This document shows positions 5,654-34,139 of a stretch of DNA of 34,803 bases, in pieces. Under the pieces are notes generated by a model, which saw nothing but the letters and a program-made list of their open reading frames with translations, had not been told where the DNA came from and ran no database searches. The position numbers and the translations under genes were made by a program. The stretch's first letter is position 1. Each line of letters begins with the position of its first letter. The stretch comes from a phage: assembly GCA_021149145.1 (NCBI GenBank), contig GCA_021149145.1_4322.1. One strand, written 5' to 3'.

Positions 5654-6887
5654 TGATTGTTACCTCTGTCTCAATTGAACCTTCACCAATCTTAACCTCA
5701 GGGGCTAATGCGCGCAAGGTATCTCGTGCTTCGTCTGCATCCATCACGCCGTTAGTGATAAGAGCAGTAATTGAATCAACGTTATTCTTCAGTGTTTCAG
5801 CGCGGTCTTTCTTCGATTCCTGAGCTAGAGGGTTAAACTCAACTGACCATTCTTGCTTGGTTGTGATGAACGGGATTAAGAACCCAAGAACTGGAAGTAG
5901 CTCTTCGTTACGCTTGCGGTCAACCAACTTATGGAATGTCTCTAGCGCTGTGTTTTGGCTAGATGATAACCCGCCAACGTTACGACCTTTGAGAATGACT
6001 TCATGGATACCACTCAGAGCAACAATTCTGTCGAACTTCTTATCGAGGAATCCATCAATCCCACCAATATCCGAGTTAAGAACGCTGTACTCTTCAGCTT
6101 CAGCGTCGATACCAATCGCGCGACCAACGCCAGAGTTATCATCAACCTGGGCAAGCCTCAACCTGGCCGCACCAAAACCTTCCGCGTCGTCACACAGTTC
6201 AGCAAGGCCTTTAGCCTTCCACACCGCCTGCTGCTTGCGGCGCAATAACTGAGTTGCCAGTTTCTCACACGTCTGATAATCCCTGATTGATTCAAGCAGG
6301 TCAGGAACCAGAACGCTAGCACCCCACCCGTCATTACCGCGACGCAATGAACTAGGAATCTTCTCGCCATCCATAATGTGAATTCGCGAGTAGTGCACAT
6401 CATAAAACATGGCGCCACCTTCTGGCGTGATGCGGTACGTTAATGGCTTACCGAATCGCACATTGCGAGGGTTTTCCTCCCTAGTCTGAACTCTTACCTG
6501 GCTACGCTCATAAACGCGAAGTGATTCAAGTTCCGCACCTTCACGTACCGGGCTAGTTAGCGCACGATTGTCCTTAACGATAGCCACAATTGCAGAGCCG
6601 CCAAATAACCTCGACCATGACCATGCGTCAGAGATTGACTCGTTAACCCTCAGGTAATCCCACCTGGACCAGAATTCACCTTCGTCATCAATACCATCGA
6701 TATGGAAACCTGCAGCGATTGCTGTCTCCGGTATGGTGTCGACGATGCGGCGTACAATTGAGTTTGATGCGTACAGTGAATCAGCGAAAGGAGGTGTAAG
6801 ATACGTGTTGCCAAAGTGCCCGTAAATCTCGCTACCATCACTGGGGCCACCAAGAAATTGCGTGGCGTATGAATCTGCTTTTACCAT
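5610..6887 (-). CDS. portal protein
   Basis: 425 aa, the first structural gene after the terminase and moron. Acidic C-terminus; size and position fit a portal (DUF1073-like). Confidence 0.75.
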   Translation of the reverse strand: MVKADSYATQFLGGPSDGSEIYGHFGNTYLTPPFADSLYASNSIVRRIVDTIPETAIAAGFHIDGIDDEGEFWSRWDYLRVNESISDAWSWSRLFGGSAIVAIVKDNRALTSPVREGAELESLRVYERSQVRVQTREENPRNVRFGKPLTYRITPEGGAMFYDVHYSRIHIMDGEKIPSSLRRGNDGWGASVLVPDLLESIRDYQTCEKLATQLLRRKQQAVWKAKGLAELCDDAEGFGAARLRLAQVDDNSGVGRAIGIDAEAEEYSVLNSDIGGIDGFLDKKFDRIVALSGIHEVILKGRNVGGLSSSQNTALETFHKLVDRKRNEELLPVLGFLIPFITTKQEWSVEFNPLAQESKKDRAETLKNNVDSITALITNGVMDADEARDTLRALAPEVKIGEGSIETEVTINETSEDPLEVPADN

Positions 6888-6902
6888 TTTATTTGCTCCA
6901 AT

Positions 6903-6923
6903 AAAAAAGCCCCATTTAGGGGC
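6903..6923 (-). terminator. rho-independent terminator closing the moron
   Basis: Minus strand reads GCCCC-TAAAT-GGGGC followed by TTTTTT. It lies 15 nt upstream of the portal ATG. Confidence 0.7.
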
Positions 6924-6946
6924 TTAGTTTAGCATAGCTTTTATGG

Positions 6947-7300
6947 TTACTCGAATTTTACTTCGAACTCGATTGATGATGTTTTCACTCCATTAAGTGT
7001 TAACTGGCGAACCTCCCTTCTGACTTCATAAAATACCTCTTTAGTTACTATGTCTTTGTTGATGAAGTATTTAATCCCAGCCTTTTCAACTTTAAAATTA
7101 TCACCTTTAACGACAAAATCGGTAGGCTCTATAACTTCGAAATCATAAACACTAAGATTAATTACGCCCAAATAGCCTTTATCATCCTTAACTTTGACGT
7201 ATTCATTATTACTTCCAGGCGTTCTTGATAAGTCATAAATCTTACCAACGGTAAAATCAAAATAACCAGCTTTTTTATACCCTTTAAATACTGCTTTCAT
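6947..7300 (-). CDS. hypothetical protein (moron between TerL and portal)
   Basis: 117-aa K/V/F-rich ORF in a visibly AT-rich segment, with its own cassette promoter upstream and its own terminator downstream. Confidence 0.6.
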   Translation of the reverse strand: MKAVFKGYKKAGYFDFTVGKIYDLSRTPGSNNEYVKVKDDKGYLGVINLSVYDFEVIEPTDFVVKGDNFKVEKAGIKYFINKDIVTKEVFYEVRREVRQLTLNGVKTSSIEFEVKFE

Positions 7301-10117: not shown

Positions 10118-10193
10118 TGGTGTTCCGCACTGGACTCGAACCAGTAACTAAGACTTAGGAGGTCTTTGCGTTATCCTGTTACGCCAGCAGAAC
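10118..10193 (-). tRNA. tRNA-Arg (anticodon CCU), CCA encoded
   Basis: Hand-folded 76-nt cloverleaf. Acceptor GTTCTGC/GCGGAAC has one G-U pair. D stem is GCGT/ACGC with GG in the loop. Anticodon stem is AAGAC/GTCTT with loop CT-CCT-AA. T arm is ACTGG-TTCGAGT-CCAGT, with discriminator A and CCA. Confidence 0.85.
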
Positions 10194-10579: not shown

Positions 10580-10770
10580 TAAAACTCCTCAGTGATAAGC
10601 ATCTTGCCACAATATTTGCACTCGTAGAACGCACATGTTTCACCTATTGATACACTTGGTTTTGTTGACTCGTGGTATGCAGAGCTTATCGCCTTAATGT
10701 CAAAATCGTGAATGATTGATGTGAACACGTAAATGTAATGATGTTTGTGATTATTGTCGTTATCACTCAT
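10579..10770 (-). CDS. hypothetical Cys-containing small protein
   Basis: The start ATGAGTGAT at 10770 (MSDNDNNHK...) lies inside a 29-bp repeat that also carries the start of the neighbouring mini-ORF. The C-terminus has a CxxC (CKYC). Confidence 0.45.
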   Translation of the reverse strand: MSDNDNNHKHHYIYVFTSIIHDFDIKAISSAYHESTKPSVSIGETCAFYECKYCGKMLITEEF

Positions 10771-10789
10771 AAAGGCTATTCCCATTCTC
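10761..10789. repeat. 29-bp perfect direct repeat, copy 1
   Basis: TATCACTCATAAAGGCTATTCCCATTCTC is identical to 10886-10914, and the flanking bases differ. Confidence 0.9.
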
Positions 10790-10793
10790 TAAC

Positions 10794-10895
10794 CTAATTC
10801 AATGTAAATATGAAGAAAATCATCCCAATTGCCGTAGCTATAGCCAATCCGATGGCGATCAGAGTTAGTACTAAATCAATGATAATATCACTCAT
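10794..10895 (-). CDS. 33-aa hydrophobic mini-protein (single predicted TM helix), absent from the ORF track
   Basis: Translation is MSDIIIDLVLTLIAIGLAIATAIGMIFFIFTLN. The ATG overlaps the upstream stop (ATGAGTGA). The ORF is bracketed by the 29-bp repeats. Confidence 0.5.
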   Translation of the reverse strand: MSDIIIDLVLTLIAIGLAIATAIGMIFFIFTLN

Positions 10896-10914
10896 AAAGG
10901 CTATTCCCATTCTC
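10886..10914. repeat. 29-bp perfect direct repeat, copy 2
   Basis: Identical to 10761-10789. Confidence 0.9.
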
Positions 10915-12643: not shown

Positions 12644-13165
12644 CTATTTAGCCTCCTTAATCATTTCTTGGTATGCGTTAATCATTGATACTGCACCCTT
12701 AAGTTCATCACCTTCAAGACCAGCGACGCTTGGTGATAGTTTCAACAATCGAGCCTTGAACCTTTCAATGGTAGCCGCCTCCTTCTCTTGCTCTGCTTTG
12801 CTTCTTGAGCCGGATTTTACAGCGCCAGGAACCAGGCTAAGTGATGCGCAGTATGTCTCACTCTCGCCATCAAAGTCGGTAAAACTAAGTGAGAACCTTG
12901 AGCGCACGTCAGCCGCCTTAATCTCAGGCATTCGGCTTACGGTGTTTGAAACGTATGACGCTTTTAGTTTTGGCATGTGGTATTCACCACCAGGTAGAAC
13001 CTCCTGACCACTTAGCGATACGAACGTCTCACGACTCATGCCGAAGTATTGACGAGCAATCATGGTCACAGGGACTGTGCACACTTTGTCTTCTGACTTG
13101 AGCGCCTGACTCGCCATGTATCGAATGATTTCACCCAAACTTACTGCTTCTTTATGTTCTGACAT
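12644..13165 (-). CDS. hypothetical protein, first gene of the leftward early operon (possible DNA-binding protein)
   Basis: 173 aa with CAGGAG upstream. An HTH-like stretch (VTMIARQYFGMSRETFVSLSG) is a weak, eye-only call. Confidence 0.5.
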   Translation of the reverse strand: MSEHKEAVSLGEIIRYMASQALKSEDKVCTVPVTMIARQYFGMSRETFVSLSGQEVLPGGEYHMPKLKASYVSNTVSRMPEIKAADVRSRFSLSFTDFDGESETYCASLSLVPGAVKSGSRSKAEQEKEAATIERFKARLLKLSPSVAGLEGDELKGAVSMINAYQEMIKEAK

Positions 13166-13210
13166 ATTCGTTACTCCTGATTGGTTGCCCTTCGTTAAGA
13201 TGAAACCATG

Positions 13211-13530
13211 GTATCATGAATATACGCGTTATCAAGTGTTATGTTGTGTTTATATCTGCATTGGTTACGCTTTTTGACCTCTCAGCCCAGCTATAGCTGG
13301 TGTAATTACCCTGTGTAAGATTTTACGCGGATTCGCCGGGGGTATGCATATGTATCTATATAGATAAAATTAGTAGTTTTCATAGAAAAACTATCGACCC
13401 ATCCATACGACCAATCTACACCATATACATACATATATACAATAATAATAATAATATAGTAAAAGGTTGATATATATAGATATTATTATGTAACCATTGC
13501 GTAATCTAGCGTGGTAGGCGTATATGATTC
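13211..13530. repeat. AT-rich switch-region module, copy A
   Basis: Collinear with 32981-33327. Shared blocks are TATACGCGT, CATTGG..TTACG, AGCTATAGCT, (AAT)5 at 13441-13455 and a 29-bp identical core at 13458-13486. Iterons TGCGTA, AGCGTG and GGCGTA sit at 13498, 13508 and 13518. Confidence 0.8.
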
Positions 13531-13650
13531 TTCGGAAGCGCACCTCATATACACACCATAACTTCGATAACGTGTATATCCAAATTGGCTCAGCAAGAAT
13601 CAAAATCAACTTGTATGGTAGTTCATCCACCATTCATTCACCCCACATCA

Positions 13651-13750
13651 ATCATTGCAAATCCCGCAACAATCAAAAACATCATTGCATTCGATGCAAT
13701 ATTGTTATATGTGCAATAGTAAGATTAATCATTGCAATATCTGCAACAAT
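13651..13750 (+). promoter_or_regulatory. array of three ATCATTGCAA-type operator-like repeats
   Basis: The repeats are ATCATTGCAAATCCCGCAACAATC (13651), ATCATTGCATTCGATGCAATATTG (13681, containing the palindrome ATTGCAT-TCG-ATGCAAT) and ATCATTGCAATATCTGCAACAAT (13728). An extra TGCAATAGT lies at 13712. Confidence 0.55.
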
Positions 13751-13764
13751 AAATAAATCCAACT

Positions 13765-13837
13765 AATAGCACTTTTTGCTAAAGACATTTAGGTATTGCG
13801 GAGTTATGGTTCACTCATCAACAACGAGGAGAGAGAT
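13765..13837 (+). promoter_or_regulatory. promoter-leader cassette copy (rightward early operon)
   Basis: Reads AATAGCACTTTTTGCTAAAGACA, 17 nt, TATGGT, then TCACTCATCAACAACGAGGAGAGAG and the ATG. Confidence 0.6.
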
Positions 13838-14023
13838 ATGAAACTTAAAGACGAAGCATTTGAGCAATTAAAGCAGGAATGTGCGCTGATTGGATTGAAC
13901 AGTGACTATACTGATATGGTTTTACGCGGACGCATCAATATCGACCTTGCTAAGCAATTCCAGTCAGATGATGAATATATGTGCTGCGATGGCCTCGGCT
14001 GCGACGAATGTTTACCATGGTAA
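13838..14023 (+). CDS. hypothetical early protein (Cys-rich C-terminus)
   Basis: The ATG at 13838 follows GAGGAGAGAG. The 61-aa protein ends YMCCDGLGCDECLPW. The track start at 13796 lies inside the leader. Confidence 0.5.
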   Translation: MKLKDEAFEQLKQECALIGLNSDYTDMVLRGRINIDLAKQFQSDDEYMCCDGLGCDECLPW

Positions 14024-15431: not shown

Positions 15432-17015
15432 ATGTTTGATTTCAACGAAGATAAACTATCTGTTGAGCAGGTTATGGCAATCGCTGCCAATGACAACCTA
15501 CCACCGCTTCGCGTGGCTATTAATGCCAATGGCTATCGACAGTCTCAATCGTTCTGGAAAGCACCTGTCGAGATTGATACAGGTAATGATAAGTATCCAG
15601 TAATCTCACTCGGTAATGATATTGATGTTGTTGGTAAGCTATCGGCTAATATCGCTCGCTCGGTTCAGTTCCCTGAGTCGTCAGCTTACATGCACTTTCT
15701 TGGTTGTGTTTCTGCTGCAATGCTTGGGCGTTTTACTGTCGAGTATCATGGAACCCAACAGCCAACATCTTTGTACGTGGTAACAAGTCAGCCGCCTTCA
15801 ACTGGTAAATCAGCCATTAACTCGCTATCAATTGCGCCGATGATTGCTGAGACTGCGCGGTTGAATGAAGTACGTAAACGTGATCGAAAAAAGATTATGG
15901 CTAAACTGTCCGCTCTGGCTAAAGAGATGAAGCAGGAAAAATCACCTTCTGAAATGGCTTCACTTTTTGAGGAGAAGGAGGATTTAGAGGAGAAGCTCGA
16001 GAAGCTATGCGATATAGTATTCCCTGTCTCCGATACTACTCCGGAAGGTCTTGCGCGAATCAACAATCGCCAGGGTAGTTTTGCGGTAATCTCTGATGAG
16101 GCTACTAGCGTCAACTCACTGTTAGGCATGACTTACGGTGATGGCTCGAAGAAAACGAACAGCGAGCTCGTGCTGAAAGCATGGGATGCAGGTAATGTGT
16201 CAATTGCCCGTGCGAACGCAGAAAATAACATGAGCTTTGTGGCTATGGGATGCATCTCCGTAATTGCTCAGGATGAAACAATCAATGCCATTATGAATGC
16301 TGGTGCGCGTGGTATTGGTGTATCTGAGCGTTTCCTTCTGGTGCGTGAAAAATCATTTCTTGGCGACCGTGTATTTGTTGATGAAAATGGTGATTCAACC
16401 TATGAGGCTATTGATGGCGGCCTGAAAGCAGACTATTTCCGTCTTGTTCATGAGATTATGAATGAAGTTGAAGTGAAACTTACTGTAAGCGCGTCATCAA
16501 TGCGTTACCTTAACCGCGCTCGTCAAGAGATGGAGCCTCATCTTGGTGATGGTGGCAAGTATTCTCACACAATGTTGCGCGGTGCTCTTGGTAAGTTTGA
16601 TAAGCAAGCAATCCGCATCGCTTCTGTTCTGCACGTAATTCGTAACTGGTTCTCACCAGCCGGATCCAGCCCTCAAAAGTCAAGAGAGATTGAACTGGAT
16701 ACAATGCAGGAAGCGATTATGATTTTCAACGAACTAAGCAAGACTTATTTATCATCCGCTAGTGCTGCTGGTCATGCTGGTGACAATGCCGAGATGAACA
16801 AGCTGGTTGATATCCTGATTAAGCAGGGCAAGAATGGTAAAGGTGTTGTTGGTGTTCGCTCGTTGTATGAGGCTGCACGCAAGGTTAAACCTTTTGAAGG
16901 TCAGGCTGGAATTATGACTCGCATTAAGGACCACTTGATTCCTATGCTTGATGAGAAAAACTACACATGCCTGATTGGTGATAAAATTTACATTAATCCA
17001 CGATTGCTGGGGTAA
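15432..17015 (+). CDS. DUF3987/YfjI-like P-loop ATPase, putative replication protein
   Basis: 527 aa with Walker A SQPPSTGKSA and a Walker-B-like AVISDEA. It sits in the replication/early operon. Confidence 0.5.
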   Translation: MFDFNEDKLSVEQVMAIAANDNLPPLRVAINANGYRQSQSFWKAPVEIDTGNDKYPVISLGNDIDVVGKLSANIARSVQFPESSAYMHFLGCVSAAMLGRFTVEYHGTQQPTSLYVVTSQPPSTGKSAINSLSIAPMIAETARLNEVRKRDRKKIMAKLSALAKEMKQEKSPSEMASLFEEKEDLEEKLEKLCDIVFPVSDTTPEGLARINNRQGSFAVISDEATSVNSLLGMTYGDGSKKTNSELVLKAWDAGNVSIARANAENNMSFVAMGCISVIAQDETINAIMNAGARGIGVSERFLLVREKSFLGDRVFVDENGDSTYEAIDGGLKADYFRLVHEIMNEVEVKLTVSASSMRYLNRARQEMEPHLGDGGKYSHTMLRGALGKFDKQAIRIASVLHVIRNWFSPAGSSPQKSREIELDTMQEAIMIFNELSKTYLSSASAAGHAGDNAEMNKLVDILIKQGKNGKGVVGVRSLYEAARKVKPFEGQAGIMTRIKDHLIPMLDEKNYTCLIGDKIYINPRLLG

Positions 17016-22823: not shown

Positions 22824-24533
22824 TCAATCCTCCATCGTAAATGATTTGTTGGCGATAATATCTTGAGACTTCTGGTTTTTACGGTGTGTGATTCTCAATG
22901 GGGCACGGAATAGATGTGCATTTGTCATAATCATTCTAGCATTACGCAATCTGCCAATTCTGAATGCCTCATTCCTGTTATCGATGTGTGTTGAGCAGAA
23001 AGCCTTCCATTTAACAGAGCAAACGCGATGGTCTGATTCAGGGAAGAATGTTTCATAAGCTCGGAATCTGTCACCACTGTGAGCCATAACCTCATATGAA
23101 GCAATAATCCCTGACTGGTTCTTTGTTAACCCAATCTTGAAGTCATAAACTCGCAACCAGTCCCCCTTACGATACATTTTTCCTGATAACTTAGCATTCG
23201 GGTCTATGAGCATCTCACCACAGCATCTGCAATTCTTAGCTGCAATATCATTCTTCTCACCGCATCCTTTCTTGATGATAGCTTTGGTCTGTGGGTCCGC
23301 CATATCTTCACACAGTATAAACTGAAAGAAGTGCTCGCAACGCTTACCGTCAATTACATTATTACAACGCCGTGCGAACGGAGAGTTCTCATAAGAACAT
23401 GCCGGGCATACCCTAGGTTCATCACCTCCTTTCCTTGATGACTTAAACTTCTGGTCCTGAACTTCTTCTATAATTGGGTCAAAGTAAAGCTCTGCCATAT
23501 CGTCAAGCGTTCCGGCGAAATCGAGAACAACATGGTCTTCTTTTACCATCCCTGAATCCTTGTGTTTTTTCTTAAGAATTCGCATACCACGACCAAGCAA
23601 CTGAATGAGTAGAGTAATGCTACCAACCTTCCTCAGGATAATGCTTGTATCCCACGGGGGGCAGTTTACGCCAGTTGTGAGGCAACCAATCTGAAATATG
23701 AACTTATATTCTCCGTTGGCTGCCTTCTCAAGTATCTCTCTACGCTTCTTCTCACCAGTGGAGTTGGTAACTATCGCCCAAGTAACACCTTCTGGAAGTG
23801 CGGCTGCCGCCTCCTCGCAATGCCGTTTGCCAGCGCAAGTTACCAATGCAGCATTCCTTGTTTCCATAAACTTAGCAGCAAATCTCATTATCTTTTGTGT
23901 CATCGTTTGGTTTTCGTGAATCTTTGCAGCCATCGCATCCATTTCTTTCTTGCTGAAGTCCTTAACCCCATCACTTCCATCAGGAGTGAACTCACTAAGG
24001 TCGTAGCCCAAATCACCAACTTCACCGTAGACAGTAGGAACAACGAACCCCAAGTCAACAAGGTAGCTGGTTGGCACTTGCATTACAGTTTTGCGCCAGA
24101 ATCCACGGACATTTGGGTTACTAACTACAATGTGGTCGTTGTTACGGTACGGGCTACCAGTTAACCCAAAGATACGAAGTTCGCGACCGTACTTCTCCCT
24201 GCATCGACGCTTCATTTCGGTAATGATTAACGTGTATTGCGCGCGACCAGTGCCAAGAAGCCCGGTATTCACACCATCCTTAAAGACCATCTCACCATTC
24301 TTCGTGCTCATCTGCTCGAATGTTTCCTCATTCTCTTCAGCTTCTACGATATCCATATGGTCCACCATGTGGCAATTATGTGCCACGACCCCGTCAGCAA
24401 TGAAATTATGGTGCTCAGGCATCTCTATATCCCAAACAAGTTCCTTGCCAATTGGTGAGATGTCTTTAATTTTGCTTGATTTTGTATTCCACGCCATTTT
24501 CCATGTGCTTACTAATTCTCTTAAAAAACTCAT
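22824..24533 (-). CDS. intein C-terminal splicing segment plus helicase C-extein (SF2 motifs III-VI, Zn ribbons)
   Basis: Residues 31-53 (ELVWDIEMPEHHNFIADGVVAHN) are intein blocks F/G, followed by Cys54-HMVD. Later motifs are GLTGSP, LTTGVN, QLLGRGMR and the CxxC clusters CPACS...CNNV, CGEK...CRCCGE. The frame is closed upstream by a stop at 24552-24554. Confidence 0.75.
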   Translation of the reverse strand: MSFLRELVSTWKMAWNTKSSKIKDISPIGKELVWDIEMPEHHNFIADGVVAHNCHMVDHMDIVEAEENEETFEQMSTKNGEMVFKDGVNTGLLGTGRAQYTLIITEMKRRCREKYGRELRIFGLTGSPYRNNDHIVVSNPNVRGFWRKTVMQVPTSYLVDLGFVVPTVYGEVGDLGYDLSEFTPDGSDGVKDFSKKEMDAMAAKIHENQTMTQKIMRFAAKFMETRNAALVTCAGKRHCEEAAAALPEGVTWAIVTNSTGEKKRREILEKAANGEYKFIFQIGCLTTGVNCPPWDTSIILRKVGSITLLIQLLGRGMRILKKKHKDSGMVKEDHVVLDFAGTLDDMAELYFDPIIEEVQDQKFKSSRKGGDEPRVCPACSYENSPFARRCNNVIDGKRCEHFFQFILCEDMADPQTKAIIKKGCGEKNDIAAKNCRCCGEMLIDPNAKLSGKMYRKGDWLRVYDFKIGLTKNQSGIIASYEVMAHSGDRFRAYETFFPESDHRVCSVKWKAFCSTHIDNRNEAFRIGRLRNARMIMTNAHLFRAPLRITHRKNQKSQDIIANKSFTMED

Positions 24534-25514
24534 CTTGTGCCGACCTCGTTGTTATTGATACTGAGTAAAGCTCTCTCTTTTTCTTGCCGCCAATATAGCT
24601 TCTAACCTTAACTCCGTCATTAGCAATAAATGCTATTAGCGCATCAACTACTGATTGAACTTCACTCCTGCTAAATGATTCGGTGTGGATTTCTACAACC
24701 CTCTTCCCTGAGCTTACAGTGCAATGACCATCATCACCAAAGTAAGCAGCCCAACCAACTGGATCAAGCTCTCTGCATATCTTTCCAATATCGTAACCAT
24801 CCTTAGAATTTCCGTACTTATCAGCATATGAATCCAGAACTTTCGTACATGATGTTGATACGCAAAACCAGTTGTCGCCAAATCCAGGGTTTTTCTTCTC
24901 CCTGTATCTAGGGTTTAGTTTTGCAAACCTTTCAACCTTGCTTAGTGCGTGCTCCTTATTTCCAATATTCCAAGATAGCCTATGCGTTCCTTTTTCTGTA
25001 TTTTTAATCAAGCAACCATCACCAGCCATTGCCGCAAGAATGTTTTGATGTAAAAAGTCATCAACCTCCATTGATGGGTTGACGGTTGAATTATGATGCC
25101 CCGTTCTGTAATCCAAATAGAAATCGAAAGGGTTCTTAAGAAGTACGCCTAACCCCTTGCTTGAATGCGGCATAACTTTTTCACCACAGCCACACTTGCA
25201 CGCAGGAGCTTTTTCGTAAATTTGTCCTGCGAGCCGTCTAGCGACAGATTCATCCCAATACGAAGTTTTCCCGCTCCTACCCAGCAGCCGTTCGAATAAA
25301 GTTTGTGTGTACTCGTGCATTTTATTTCCTCTCCGCTTTCTAATTTAATTGATGATACATGTCTTACACCATTAGTAAAAACTCTTTTTGGCTTATGATA
25401 GAAGTAATCACCAGTGCTTTCGTTTATGCATTTTATTTTATGATTGATAAGGTCTTCGCTATCAATCCTCATCATCCCTGAATCGGTGGTTATCATCGTG
25501 TCTCCAGTTAAGCA
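24375..25514 (-). mobile_element. intein element in helicase motif II (1140 nt = 380 codons)
   Basis: Bounded by AIDE|CLTGDTMI (Cys codon 25514-25512) and VVAHN|CH (Cys codon 24374-24372). The two exteins are in the same frame. Confidence 0.8.
24466..25320 (-). CDS. double-motif LAGLIDADG homing endonuclease, separate ORF nested in the intein
   Basis: Carries LAAMAGDGCL and AAYFGDDGHC and ends ...VEYKIKQN. It has its own ATG 7 nt after GGAGAGGA. Its frame differs from both intein halves, and it is closed upstream by a stop at 25345-25347. Confidence 0.75.
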   Translation of the reverse strand: MHEYTQTLFERLLGRSGKTSYWDESVARRLAGQIYEKAPACKCGCGEKVMPHSSKGLGVLLKNPFDFYLDYRTGHHNSTVNPSMEVDDFLHQNILAAMAGDGCLIKNTEKGTHRLSWNIGNKEHALSKVERFAKLNPRYREKKNPGFGDNWFCVSTSCTKVLDSYADKYGNSKDGYDIGKICRELDPVGWAAYFGDDGHCTVSSGKRVVEIHTESFSRSEVQSVVDALIAFIANDGVKVRSYIGGKKKRELYSVSITTRSAQDEFFKRISKHMENGVEYKIKQN

Positions 25515-25958
25515 CTCATCTATCGCGATAACAGCAGGAGCATAGTCACCAAGCCCCTTAAACAAGCCGTTAGCAGCCGTTCCCTCACTAGCCACTATGG
25601 TTGGATAGTAAACTGATTTAACGTTAAGGCCAGCGCAATAGACGCTATTACGGATGCCGAAATTACGAAGTTCCTCTGCGTTCTGGCTGACAATCTCTGA
25701 CTGGCGAGATAGGACCATGTAAGGAAGGCCAAGCTGTTCCATTCGTTTCCCAATCATGGCGAGAATAATCGTCTTGCCAGCCGAAACCGATAGGTCTGCT
25801 ATGAATGGCGCTTCGTACTTGCCAATAGCCTTTCCGATTGCGTCAAATGTCACGCACTGGAATGGGTATGGTGTGATTTCTCCGAACTGATAATCATTTT
25901 GAATCTGCTTGATTTTATCTTGGTCAAAGTTTGCTACTAAGCGTTCTACTGGAAGCAT
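25149..25958 (-). CDS. helicase N-extein (motifs I-II) plus intein N-terminal splicing segment
   Basis: Walker A DLSVSAGKT, then AIDE followed at residue 149 by block A CLTGDTMI and block B CTSTHKL. It stops after 121 intein residues. Confidence 0.75.
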   Translation of the reverse strand: MLPVERLVANFDQDKIKQIQNDYQFGEITPYPFQCVTFDAIGKAIGKYEAPFIADLSVSAGKTIILAMIGKRMEQLGLPYMVLSRQSEIVSQNAEELRNFGIRNSVYCAGLNVKSVYYPTIVASEGTAANGLFKGLGDYAPAVIAIDECLTGDTMITTDSGMMRIDSEDLINHKIKCINESTGDYFYHKPKRVFTNGVRHVSSIKLESGEEIKCTSTHKLYSNGCWVGAGKLRIGMNLSLDGSQDKFTKKLLRASVAVVKKLCRIQARG

Positions 25959-26044
25959 TTTAAATATCCTGATAGTTCTTTAGTTCGTTGCATTGATGTA
26001 TAATAACAGCCATAGAACCCATTGTTTAACAAAAAGTGCTATTG
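25959..26044 (-). promoter_or_regulatory. promoter-leader cassette copy (helicase operon) in a divergent region
   Basis: Minus strand reads AATAGCACTTTTTGTTAAACAA, 16 nt, TATTAT, then ACATCAATGCAACGAAC... and the ATG. The box ends 10 nt before the ATG of the divergent HTH gene. Confidence 0.55.
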
Positions 26045-26054
26045 AGGTAATGAG

Positions 26055-26528
26055 ATGTGTAAAATTGACAAGCGAACTATTAACGGCAATAACGGGACCG
26101 TCCGCACGCAAGACAAGAAGCAACGCAAGCGACCTTCAGGCTACTACGTATTGAAAGATGAAGTAAAGGCTGGTCTACGCGCGCGTCTGGAAATGATTCT
26201 TGATTTCTACGGCACGAAAGCCAATATCGCCAAGCAGTTAAATGTATCTCACCAGACTGTAGAGCAATGGTTTAATCGCGGGATGATTTCGGCTCGAGGG
26301 GCTCAGAGAGCGCATAATGCGTACAAGCGAAATAAGGAAGGGTTCCGAGCTACATTCTGCCGACCAGACCTGCAATTCGACGGTAACGGAAAGCCGCTAA
26401 CACTTCGATGCAAGAAACGCCATATGCTTCGCGTAGTTACCGAGGCAGAACTAGCAATAAAACCACCCTGTCGACCGTGGCGCAAGAATAAGATTGCTAA
26501 CGAAGCAGCACGAAAAGCTAAAGGGTAA
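26055..26528 (+). CDS. HTH DNA-binding protein (Cro/YdaS-like), basic
   Basis: Contains GTKANIAKQLNVSHQTVEQWFNRGMIS. The N- and C-terminal regions are Arg/Lys-rich. Confidence 0.6.
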   Translation: MCKIDKRTINGNNGTVRTQDKKQRKRPSGYYVLKDEVKAGLRARLEMILDFYGTKANIAKQLNVSHQTVEQWFNRGMISARGAQRAHNAYKRNKEGFRATFCRPDLQFDGNGKPLTLRCKKRHMLRVVTEAELAIKPPCRPWRKNKIANEAARKAKG

Positions 26529-30548: not shown

Positions 30549-30977
<429 letters not shown>

Positions 30978-32908: not shown

Positions 32909-32980
32909 TTCTCTATCTCTCTATTGTTGCGTGCTTTCGATTAGTTAATGATGCCGTACGCACAACGCATAGTCCAATTG

Positions 32981-33327
32981 GTATCACCTATTAATTAATC
33001 AAGTATACGCGTATAATTTTGTAACTACGTGTAGACATTGGCATGAGTTACGTTTTTAGCCACTTAAGCCAAGCTATAGCTCAATGTAAATAGTGAGTAT
33101 ACCGTGTATACCGATTTTAGCGGAGGGTGCATAGGTATAGGTGCTGCGCAATACTGTATAAAATCACATGGTATAAAAATTATAAGCGGAACACTCAAGA
33201 ACAGTAGTTACATGATATACAAGATATACATATATAATAATAATAATAAGAGTAAAAGGTTGATATATATAGATATTATAATGTAACTATGGCGTAAACT
33301 GGCGTAACTGGGCGTATACGATTTCCA
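32981..33327. repeat. AT-rich switch-region module, copy B
   Basis: Collinear with 13211-13530. It has the palindrome TATACGCGTATA (33004-33015), AGCTATAGCT (33072-33081), (AAT)4 at 33236-33247 and a 29-bp identical core at 33251-33279. GGCGTA iterons sit at 33291, 33301 and 33311. Confidence 0.8.
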
Positions 33328-33373
33328 GCGGATGCATATGGTATACATGGAGTTACATTGGTTACGCGTAAAC

Positions 33374-33449
33374 AATAGCACGAATAGCTAAAACTAATAC
33401 GCAAAACCCTGTATAGTTGGTCACACAAAAAACGAGAGAGGATTTCAAA
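33374..33449 (+). promoter_or_regulatory. promoter-leader cassette copy
   Basis: Reads AATAGCACGAATAGCTAAAACT, 16 nt, TATAGT, then TGGTCACACAAAAAACGAGAGAGG and the ATG. Confidence 0.6.
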
Positions 33450-34121
33450 ATGGTTATTTGGTCTTTATTTGATGGTTCAGGGCTGGCTGTGAAAGATTGG
33501 GCTGAGGCTTGTCACGAGTGCTACTGTTTCAACTTTGATGAGTCTGACCACGGTAGTTACGGGGATTTAAATGCAAAATTTGAACATGAGAACATCACCT
33601 ACGTTAATGCCTGGATAGATGGCAACTTCGACTTTGATGTGAAGCCTGATATCATTTTAGCGTTCCCGCCGTGTACGGATTTAGCCGTGAGCGGGTCAAG
33701 GCACTTTGAGCGAAAGCGACTGGTTAACCATAACTTCCAGATTGAAGCTGCGGAAACATGTAAAGTTGCTTTTAACTTGGCTAATAAGTACGAAGTCCCA
33801 TACATGATTGAGAATCCAATCAGCGTACTGTCATCACTCTGGAGAAAGCCTAATAAGACTTTCCACCCATATGAATACGGAGGCTATTTGCCGGAAGATG
33901 ATTTACACCCGTTTTTTAGCGACCTAATAAAGCCAAAAGACGCATATCCCAAGAAGACATGCATTTGGTATGGCAATGGGTTTAAATGGCCAGAGGCGAT
34001 TCCTGTGGACGTTAACGATGGATTCTCTGACCAATACAAGAAGCTTGGTGGGAAGAGTAAGAAGACAAAGGTAATTCGCAGTCTAACTCCTCGCGGTTTT
34101 GCAAAAGCAGTCTTCATAGCA

Positions 34122-34139
<18 letters not shown>
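33450..34139 (+). CDS. compact C5-cytosine DNA methyltransferase-like protein
   Basis: The ATG at 33450 follows the leader. Motif I is LFDGSGL, motif IV is FPPCTDLAVSG, motif VI is MIENP, and a motif-IX-like RSLTPRGFAKAVF is present. At only 229 aa, no obvious target-recognition domain is visible. Confidence 0.55.

Follow-up and report, generated by a model that had tools for sequence, protein, structure and literature searches.

The stretch of DNA analyzed here (contig GCA_021149145.1_4322.1 of assembly GCA_021149145.1, 34,803 nucleotides; hereafter, the window) belongs to a T1-like siphophage of the Drexlerviridae, subfamily Braunvirinae, based on megablast of the region (identity of 96-97% with Escherichia phages ES and AN_ECEAS, and of ~78% with Rtp). 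Our subject is a noncoding module of ~365 bp, built around a central unit of ~150 bp, that occurs twice in the window, in two gaps between divergently transcribed genes. Gene context was fixed against the annotated Rtp and T1 records.

13166-13837, gap A, between the leftward DUF7174 gene (12644-13165) and the rightward operon that starts at 13838
32909-33449, gap B, between the leftward RecE/Erf/SSB operon and a rightward gene at 33450

Leftward of gap A, the DUF7174 gene is followed by the small and large terminase genes. Rightward of it lies an operon of small genes, the last of which encodes a DUF3987 helicase (15432-17015).

The paired modules and their parts

Module A (13211-13582) and module B (32981-33374) are collinear paralogues in direct orientation. 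A first-pass annotation of the window, made from the letters alone, had described two collinear, same-orientation, visibly diverged segments and had argued that they are neither an assembly duplicate nor a terminal redundancy. Pairwise alignment bears out both points: these are diverged paralogues with 72-74% identity (72.3% over the full modules, z = 26.8 versus shuffles; 73.9% over the span first described). The collinearity was correctly seen, but its right end lies further out than was thought, at ~13582 in A and ~33374 in B. The parts of the two modules are as follows.

Module A:
13217-13253, unstranded: left inverted arm TGAATATACGCGTTATCAAGTGTTATGTTGTGTTTAT, pairing with 13547-13582 at 29 of 37 positions
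13235 to 13208, minus strand: candidate leftward promoter, TTGATA-16-TGaTACCAT, with its -35-like TTGATA inside the left arm; same arrangement in Rtp
13287-13332, plus strand: palindrome CCAGCTATAGCTGG (13287-13300), then the left array GTGTAAT..CCTGTGTAAGATTTTACGCGGA, a weaker direct copy of the right array
13415-13455, plus strand: TCTACA..TATACA block, then (AAT)5 (13441-13455), in the least stable duplex segment of the window
13458-13486, plus strand: 29-bp core, identical to 33251-33279
13460-13472, minus strand: IHF-consensus match TATCAACCTTTTA, a perfect WATCAANNNNTTR with an AT-rich 5' flank
13489-13538, plus strand: right array, with TGTAAC, GCGT(A) at 13499, 13509, and 13518, then GATTCTTCGGAAG; phase conserved, spacers variable
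13547-13582, unstranded: right inverted arm ATATACACACCATAACTTCGATAACGTGTATATCCA, pairing with the left arm; present in Rtp copy A too

Module B:
33003-33036, unstranded: left inverted arm GTATACGCGTATAATTTTGTAACTACGTGTAGAC, pairing with 33341-33374 at 24 of 34 positions
33071-33124, plus strand: palindrome AGCTATAGCT, then the left array AATGTAAATAGTGAGTATACCGTGTATACCGATTTTAGCGGA, a direct copy of the right array that lacks one of its repeats; likewise in Rtp copy B
33204-33249, plus strand: GTAGTTACATGATATACA, then (AAT)n at 33235-33249, in the second least stable duplex segment
33251-33279, plus strand: 29-bp core, with the IHF consensus on the minus strand at 33253-33265
33282-33332, plus strand: right array, with TGTAAC, GGCGTA at 33291, 33301, and 33311, then GATTTCCAGCGGA; Tandem Repeats Finder (TRF) reports a period-10 array at 33290-33316
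33341-33374, unstranded: right inverted arm GTATACATGGAGTTACATTGGTTACGCGTAAAC, directly followed by a 21-nt repeat (33375-33392) and TATAGT (33412-33417)

The core, AGTAAAAGGTTGATATATATAGATATTAT, was rightly identified as a 29-bp identity: the exact 29-mer has just two occurrences in the window, both on the plus strand (0 expected). As an “invariant core,” it is better described as an IHF-consensus site. The consensus is matched perfectly in both cores, which provide two of the only three perfect matches in the window; this match was noticed after the fact. The (AAT)5 tract at 13441-13455 is present as first reported and, together with its counterpart at 33235-33249, represents the sole noncoding period-3 tandem repeats found by TRF. 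The only other period-3-type array is a CTGTTG/CAG run at 30573-30646 (~12 copies of a 6-mer), which lies inside a 142-amino-acid open reading frame (ORF; 30549-30977, minus strand) and would give a Gln-rich run in an SSB-like protein.

Some landmarks are shared less exactly than was first proposed. The palindrome CCAGCTATAGCTGG stands at 13287-13300, but copy B keeps only its inner AGCTATAGCT; similarly, CATTGGTTACGC is exact in A but has CATGAGTTACGT as its collinear counterpart in B, where the exact motif ACATTGGTTACGCG occurs instead in the right arm, at 33355-33368. The three GCGT-type hexamers had been placed exactly one helical turn apart. This is true of copy B (10+10 bp) but not of copy A, where the spacing is 10+9 bp because the first base of GGCGTA is 13517 rather than 13518. 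Across the 34.8 kb, the pattern GCGT-N5-7-GCGT-N5-8-GCGT is matched just twice, once per module (0.03 expected), and GCGTA/TACGC is about sixfold enriched in the two gaps, with 14 of 63 sites in 3.5% of the sequence.

Two parts of the module were absent from the earlier description. Each copy is bounded by inverted arms of ~35 bp (the same arm pair occurs in Rtp), and 197-208 bp to the left of the right array, across the AT tract, there is a second array (TGTAA – repeats – GATTT..GCGGA) that is a direct but weaker version of it.

The two least stable 60-bp duplexes of the window are 13429-13489 (z 5.0) and 33222-33282 (z 4.85), and the next has a z of 3.3. In the complete T1, Rtp, and AHP42 genomes, the same two gaps again supply the top two (z 5.0-5.8; next ≤3.75).

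Both modules sit at divergent junctions, as the first-pass annotation had it, but divergence alone does not define their placement: the window has three such junctions and the third (25958-26055) lacks the module. That junction is bounded on the right by a gene for a Cro/YdaS-like helix-turn-helix (HTH) regulator (26055-26528). Beside this gene lies the sole DnaA-box match of the window (TTTTACACA, 26056-26064, minus strand; 1 vs. 4.5 expected). On the other side, the SNF2-type helicase gene 22824-25958 (minus strand), a homolog of T1 gp22, is apparently split by an intein with a LAGLIDADG endonuclease, with Intein_splicing matches at each end and LAGLIDADG_2 in the ORF between them (24466-25320).

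Conservation in relatives and adjoining elements

A check on relatives was suggested with the first-pass annotation: ~130 phage records keep both copies at the same two divergent junctions, and each gap was matched in ~130 records at 74-80% identity. Related-locus searches with single proteins returned five loci for DUF7174 and none for RecE; hence, GenBank phage records were used. The aligned set comprises 20 copies (9 A and 11 B) from Braunvirinae, Rogunavirinae, and Nouzillyvirus. The left half of the consensus reads TACA..aTATACA – ATATAT(AAT)n – TAAA.GGTTGATATATATAGATATT – TGTAAC – GCGTA – N5 – GCGT, and from this middle GCGT the right half continues as N6 – GCGTATA – ATTT..CGCGGA – GTATACA..GTTACA..GTTACGCGTA. 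The GCGT repeats stand at +44/45, +54/55, and +63-65 from the end of (AAT)n in 16 of the 20 copies, and the bases between them vary; fixed repeat positions with variable spacers are the signature of protein-binding sites. In 11 relatives, the right-array block of module B is almost invariant. The distance from TATACA to the core is fixed and almost gap-free across the 20 copies, so the (AAT) tract changes by substitution rather than by slippage, which indicates that the spacing is under selection. The IHF consensus has no mismatch in 13 of these copies, one mismatch in 3, and two in 4. The anatomy first proposed, an easily melted AT tract adjoining phased repeats, holds and is conserved in at least three subfamilies.

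In Veterinaerplatzvirus, the gap DNA is 76% identical and the adjacent DUF7174 protein is 38% identical. T1 belongs to the Tunavirinae; each of its two equivalent gaps contains an AT-rich tract and motifs of the GTTACA type, and copy A alone has two GGCGTAA repeats, 10 bp apart. The module stays while the directly flanking genes differ (cor, DNA methyltransferase, Rha/Roi-like). In the window, the gene 3' of module B (33450-34139, plus strand) encodes a DNA methyltransferase (phrog_757); the same position is occupied by the cor lipoprotein gene in Rtp, T1, and Rogue1, and by Roi/Rha-like genes in BEK6 and ESCO41.

Within a genome, A and B are about as similar as copies from different genomes (core, 0.89 vs. 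0.85; no difference elsewhere). They are thus old paralogues without homogenization, and gene conversion between A and B was rejected on these grounds. The exact 25-mer core was found in only three IMG/VR contigs, so an exact-match scan is too strict. BLAST of the core module against 5426 E. coli genomes and 72,556 plasmids gave no match; thus, no satellite, prophage, or plasmid among them carries the module. A literature search found no paper describing these paired modules. We consider the modules almost certain to be real, ancient, and selected cis-elements.

The unusual length of gap A had been remarked on from the beginning. The gap is long, but its length comes from a separate region (~13600-13760) rather than from the module: this region and its conserved repeats are present in A and absent in B. 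The elements of gap A outside the shared module are listed here.

~13600-13760, minus strand: probable pac region, with no counterpart in B
13647-13679 and 13724-13756: pac repeats ATCATTGCA-N6-GCAACAAT, around a palindrome at 13678-13706
13764-13810, plus strand: 21-nt repeat ATAGCACTTTTTGCTAAAGAC, with TATGGT 21 nt downstream

Assignment of ~13600-13760 as the pac region is probable, judging from where the ends of relatives fall when mapped onto the window. For phage MSK, PhageTerm gave a single terminus at position 36,862, forward (PMC8421802), which maps to window position 13618. The start of the SU57 record is PhageTerm-derived (PMC7718038), and its position 1 maps to 13600. In the T1 record, terminal redundancy is annotated from position 1, which is inside the pac element, and the Rtp record also starts inside it. 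Packaging proceeds leftward, through module A. The stretch at ~13600-13800 is the most conserved noncoding stretch of all, and conservation of the pac element exceeds that of the flanking genes. The shared module was itself considered as the pac site and was rejected, because the MSK and SU57 termini map to the right of module A and copy B has no such region.

The 21-nt repeat accounts for the remainder of gap A, which, as read from its sequence, is module A plus the presumptive pac region plus a promoter of the 21-nt-repeat type. The repeat (ATAGCACnnnTTGnTAAAgac) has been reported from TLS and T1, with function unknown (PMC11447400). It is present in at least 13 copies, each just upstream of a gene, including these sites:

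Minus strand: 7373, 11197, 18825, 19902, 22406, 26042, 31742
Plus strand: 13766, 14579, 15359, 33375, 34123

A -10-like TATNNT or TAATNA follows ...TAAA by 19-21 nt at 11 of these 12 repeats (19902 on the minus strand lacks it), and often a short hairpin and CGAAACGAAA come next, ahead of the ribosome-binding site. Such an arrangement suggests a phage promoter that depends on an activator, and the copy at 13764-13810 is likely the promoter of the rightward operon from 13838. The leftward genes adjoining both modules have no 21-nt repeat. Like the modules, the repeat is conserved noncoding sequence, and one copy lies to the right of each module (13764, 33375); it differs from them in sequence, in copy number, and in lying outside the module.

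Two further features lie leftward of gap A. One is an exact direct repeat of 29 bp, TATCACTCATAAAGGCTATTCCCATTCTC, among the small genes upstream of the terminase genes; its copies, at 10761-10789 and 10886-10914, are 125 bp apart. There is also a tRNA gene at 10121-10193 (minus strand; Rfam RF00005, 58.9 bits), a region in which relatives annotate tRNA-Arg.

Possible replication origin or early control region

Each module appears to be a cis-acting site for protein assembly on DNA, with a central 150 bp built like an iteron-type origin. In both copies, three helically phased direct repeats adjoin an AT-rich region of exceptionally low duplex stability. Two readings fit best, a replication origin and a nucleoprotein regulatory hub, and sequence alone cannot separate them. 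Tentatively, and as a possibility rather than a probability, we read the central unit as an iteron-plus-unwinding-element origin, two per genome, that may be coupled to early transcription. Under this scheme, a phage DNA-binding protein would occupy the phased GCGTA repeats, IHF would bend the AT tract, and the tract would then melt. The unwinding element would consist of the (AAT)n tract and the TA-rich core, with the IHF bending site inside it. The phage replication proteins that might then be loaded are the MCM-like DUF3987 helicase (15432-17015) and the Zn-ribbon primase (PF08273; 27056-27979). The two origins would be 19.8 kb apart. The inverted arms would carry or control outward-facing promoters, in which case origin firing may be coupled to early transcription, as at T7 and T4 origins.

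Several observations would favor an origin. Extreme duplex instability, an IHF-consensus match, and phased repeats, with a second array across the AT tract, make up a textbook combination. The rightward genes probably have their own 21-nt-repeat promoter outside the module, and copy A has its leftward promoter candidate in the left arm, so the central unit seems not to be needed for any obvious promoter. Conservation of gap DNA above the neighboring protein points to selection on noncoding DNA. Further, the phage is predicted to encode replication proteins of its own, a primase and an AAA+ helicase of MCM-like type that carries a winged helix. The DUF3987 protein (plus strand) is annotated as a “DNA helicase” in relatives, and its AlphaFold model (predicted local distance difference test score, 89) ends in a helix-strand-helix-helix-strand-strand winged helix (residues 451-521). 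The best Protein Data Bank (PDB) fold matches of the model are all MCM2-7 or archaeal MCM, with E values of 1e-5 to 1e-3. PDB sequence searches with this protein and with the HTH regulator gave nothing significant. From the model and the gene content, the DUF3987 helicase and the HTH regulator (26055-26528) are candidate binders of the repeats.

The layout may extend to more distant phages. Two metagenomic phage contigs (loci L031 and L032) encode DUF3987 proteins that are 36-40% identical. In L031, a 560-bp gap (6202-6760) directly upstream of a DUF3987-primase-helicase operon contains (AAC)12, a palindrome, CCCTTTATTTATAAGGG (CCCTT..AAGGG), that resembles the Rogunavirinae core, 10 of the 13 CTTACAY heptamers of the locus, and a 13-mer, CCTGTGTAAGATT, identical to window positions 13311-13323 in the left array of module A. 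An 82-amino-acid ORF beside this module has no similarity to the HTH regulator of the window and matches no Pfam family. In L032, a gap (6542-7077) right after the DUF3987 terminator, between two rightward genes, has (TAG)4 within the 60-mer of lowest duplex stability in the locus (z 4.05), with ACCCCAG repeats on the flanks. What recurs appears to be a trinucleotide tract in AT-rich DNA together with lineage-specific repeats, adjoining the helicase gene. Neither (AAC)n nor (TAG)n can function as a -10 element, and for this reason the arrangement fits an origin better than a promoter.

In the bacterial DnaA-trio, a trinucleotide run (3'-G/AAT-5') lies by the initiator sites, and the AAA+ initiator engages single-stranded DNA there. 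The (AAT)n tract read as TAA fits, and the (TAG)4 of L032 is the consensus; however, the modules have no DnaA boxes and the (AAC)12 of L031 is a misfit, so the resemblance is one of layout only, and a role for the trinucleotide period is speculation. It is conceivable, although we think it unlikely, that the DUF3987 winged helix recognizes the arrays or arms of the module and loads onto the strand exposed at the trinucleotide tract, which would make this a viral counterpart of the DnaA-trio, with two origins firing with the early promoters.

Known systems offer partial parallels. SPP1, a pac-type headful siphovirus of Bacillus, has oriL and oriR, each with initiator-binding boxes beside an AT-rich region; the boxes are bound by the initiator G38P, and oriL is inside the initiator gene. 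The modules likewise are two separated copies of repeats plus an AT-rich region, but both are intergenic, there is no sequence similarity, and here there are only candidate initiators. Satellite phage P4 uses two distant cis sites, ori and crr, which have the same short repeats (TGTTCACC) and are bound by the winged-helix domain of the primase-helicase alpha, a single polypeptide with a superfamily 3 helicase. The T1-type primase is in the same Zn-ribbon family as alpha (PF08273), and again there are two distant sites; here, however, the primase and the MCM-like DUF3987 helicase are separate genes and the repeats are GCGTA and GTTACA. In the pSC101 and lambda origins, three to four helically phased direct repeats adjoin an AT-rich unwinding region, and pSC101 also has an IHF site. 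That layout is similar, but their iterons are 18-22 bp and lie in or beside the initiator gene, and pSC101 needs a DnaA box, whereas the repeats here are 5-7 bp at 10-bp spacing, with no DnaA box. The T7 primary origin and T4 oriF/oriG unite promoter and origin functions, with an AT-rich unwinding element placed after the promoter. T7 uses promoters of its own RNA polymerase, T4 uses MotA-dependent middle promoters, and neither is known to have phased iterons or an IHF site. Overlap of promoter and origin of the T7/T4 type would reconcile the two leading readings.

The other leading reading, nearly as likely as an origin, is that the modules are purely transcriptional: paralogous early control regions at which host RNA polymerase would start rightward from TATACA-16/17-AATAAT at the core, with leftward starts in the left arm. 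The four flanking early operons would be switched on or off together by IHF and a phage regulator (the HTH protein being a candidate) acting on GCGTA/GTTACA, and the AT richness would be promoter or UP-element DNA rather than an unwinding element. A number of findings tell in its favor, some of them also against an origin. The -35-like TATACA lies 16-17 bp from AATAAT in nearly all copies, giving the look of an early promoter starting at the core, and these hexamers are kept in position. Both modules occupy divergent junctions (two of the three), which must contain promoters, and the variable genes beside them are the pattern expected of insertions next to strong promoters. The leftward TTGATA-16-TGnTACCAT is present in the left arm of copy A and in Rtp, and the phage encodes an HTH regulator. 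In L031, by our own reading, two heptamers overlap a good sigma-70 promoter (TTGACT-17-TATTAT) upstream of the replication operon, as operators do, so the GTTACA-type motif may be regulatory. Other findings count against an origin more directly. The DnaA box TTWTNCACA is absent from both gaps; the IHF consensus, besides being recognized post hoc, is not enriched in the window (3 vs. 2.4 expected); T1 copy B has the AT tract without a GCGTA triplet; and the fold match between DUF3987 and MCM is weak (template-modeling score ~0.35). GC and AT skew by segment follow the coding strand and give no origin signal, and skew that tracks transcription direction is uninformative on this point. Weighed against the transcriptional reading are the hexamers themselves, which at best match sigma-70 at 9 of 12 positions and are no commoner than in shuffled sequence. 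No match of ≥10/12 occurs in or near the gaps, which favors the transcriptional reading, since immediate-early promoters must exist somewhere. In copy B, no convincing leftward promoter was found, and a literature search found no T1-like phage transcriptome. For activation, an IHF site at +2 to +15 with repeats at +40 to +65 would be unusually placed, the other ~13 putative promoters of the phage (21-nt-repeat type) lack such an AT extreme, and the rightward genes already have a 21-nt-repeat element. In the distant phages, the tracts at the same position, (AAC)12 and (TAG)4, cannot be -10 elements, and the L032 element lies between two codirectional genes.

Three further explanations are much less probable. 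It is improbable that the module is a packaging accessory site, involved in small-terminase or IHF-assisted recognition, with copy B as a secondary or vestigial pac. Only ~20-40 bp lie between the end of module A and the pac termini mapped in relatives, and packaging takes in this module first. The small terminase is of the P22 gp3 type, and an IHF site flanked by short repeats recalls lambda cosB. At lambda cosB and SPP1 pacL, an IHF or bent-DNA site is flanked by terminase-binding repeats beside the cleavage site. Module A does adjoin mapped termini, but copy B lacks a cleavage region, any pac element, and the conserved CATTGCA/GCAACAAT repeats. The element at 13630-13760, the best-conserved part found only in gap A, is a sufficient pac candidate alone, and MSK has a single PhageTerm terminus (PMC8421802). 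The inverted arms at both intergenic copies (29/37 in A, 24/34 in B) would suit a small mobile element: a unit of ~365 bp, ending in inverted repeats, that entered an ancestral genome at two places and now survives as a functionless relic. Despite the arms, a simple relic is very improbable: by direct reading, there is no target-site duplication at the module ends, and none of the ~130 records per gap was seen lacking a copy, although empty sites were not specifically looked for. The modules are conserved in blocks at fixed spacing, more strongly than the neighboring protein; moreover, the unit is present just twice, and the searched E. coli genomes and plasmids contain none. Least probable of all is a structured RNA or small gene (a noncoding RNA, 5' leader, or small protein). 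Short ORFs overlap the gaps (13391-13633, minus strand; 13524-13766, plus strand; 33104-33286, plus strand), and small coding sequences are annotated there in some relatives, but the conserved blocks are split by single-nucleotide indels and variable spacers with no codon pattern. Rfam is empty for the modules (gathering thresholds on the window, E ≤ 1 on the two gaps of Rtp), its only hits being the tRNA elsewhere in the window and a chance snoRNA match, and RNAalifold on the 20 copies gave ~0 to -2.4 kcal/mol on both strands. Even together, these three explanations carry little weight; what probability remains is reserved for functions outside those considered here.

T1, one of the seven classical T phages, is notorious as a contaminant of laboratories and fermenters. 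Nonetheless, no replication origin is known for T1-like phages, and genome papers state that none was found (PMC11447400, PMC7718038). Neither the origin nor the control of early transcription has ever been located in this group, for which two ~150-bp candidate sites are now defined with their sub-elements, candidate binding proteins are named, and the pac region is separated from the shared module. If the modules are true origins, the recurrence of the trinucleotide tract would merit mechanistic study, and the modules would be useful for engineering T1-like phages and phage-dependent vectors.

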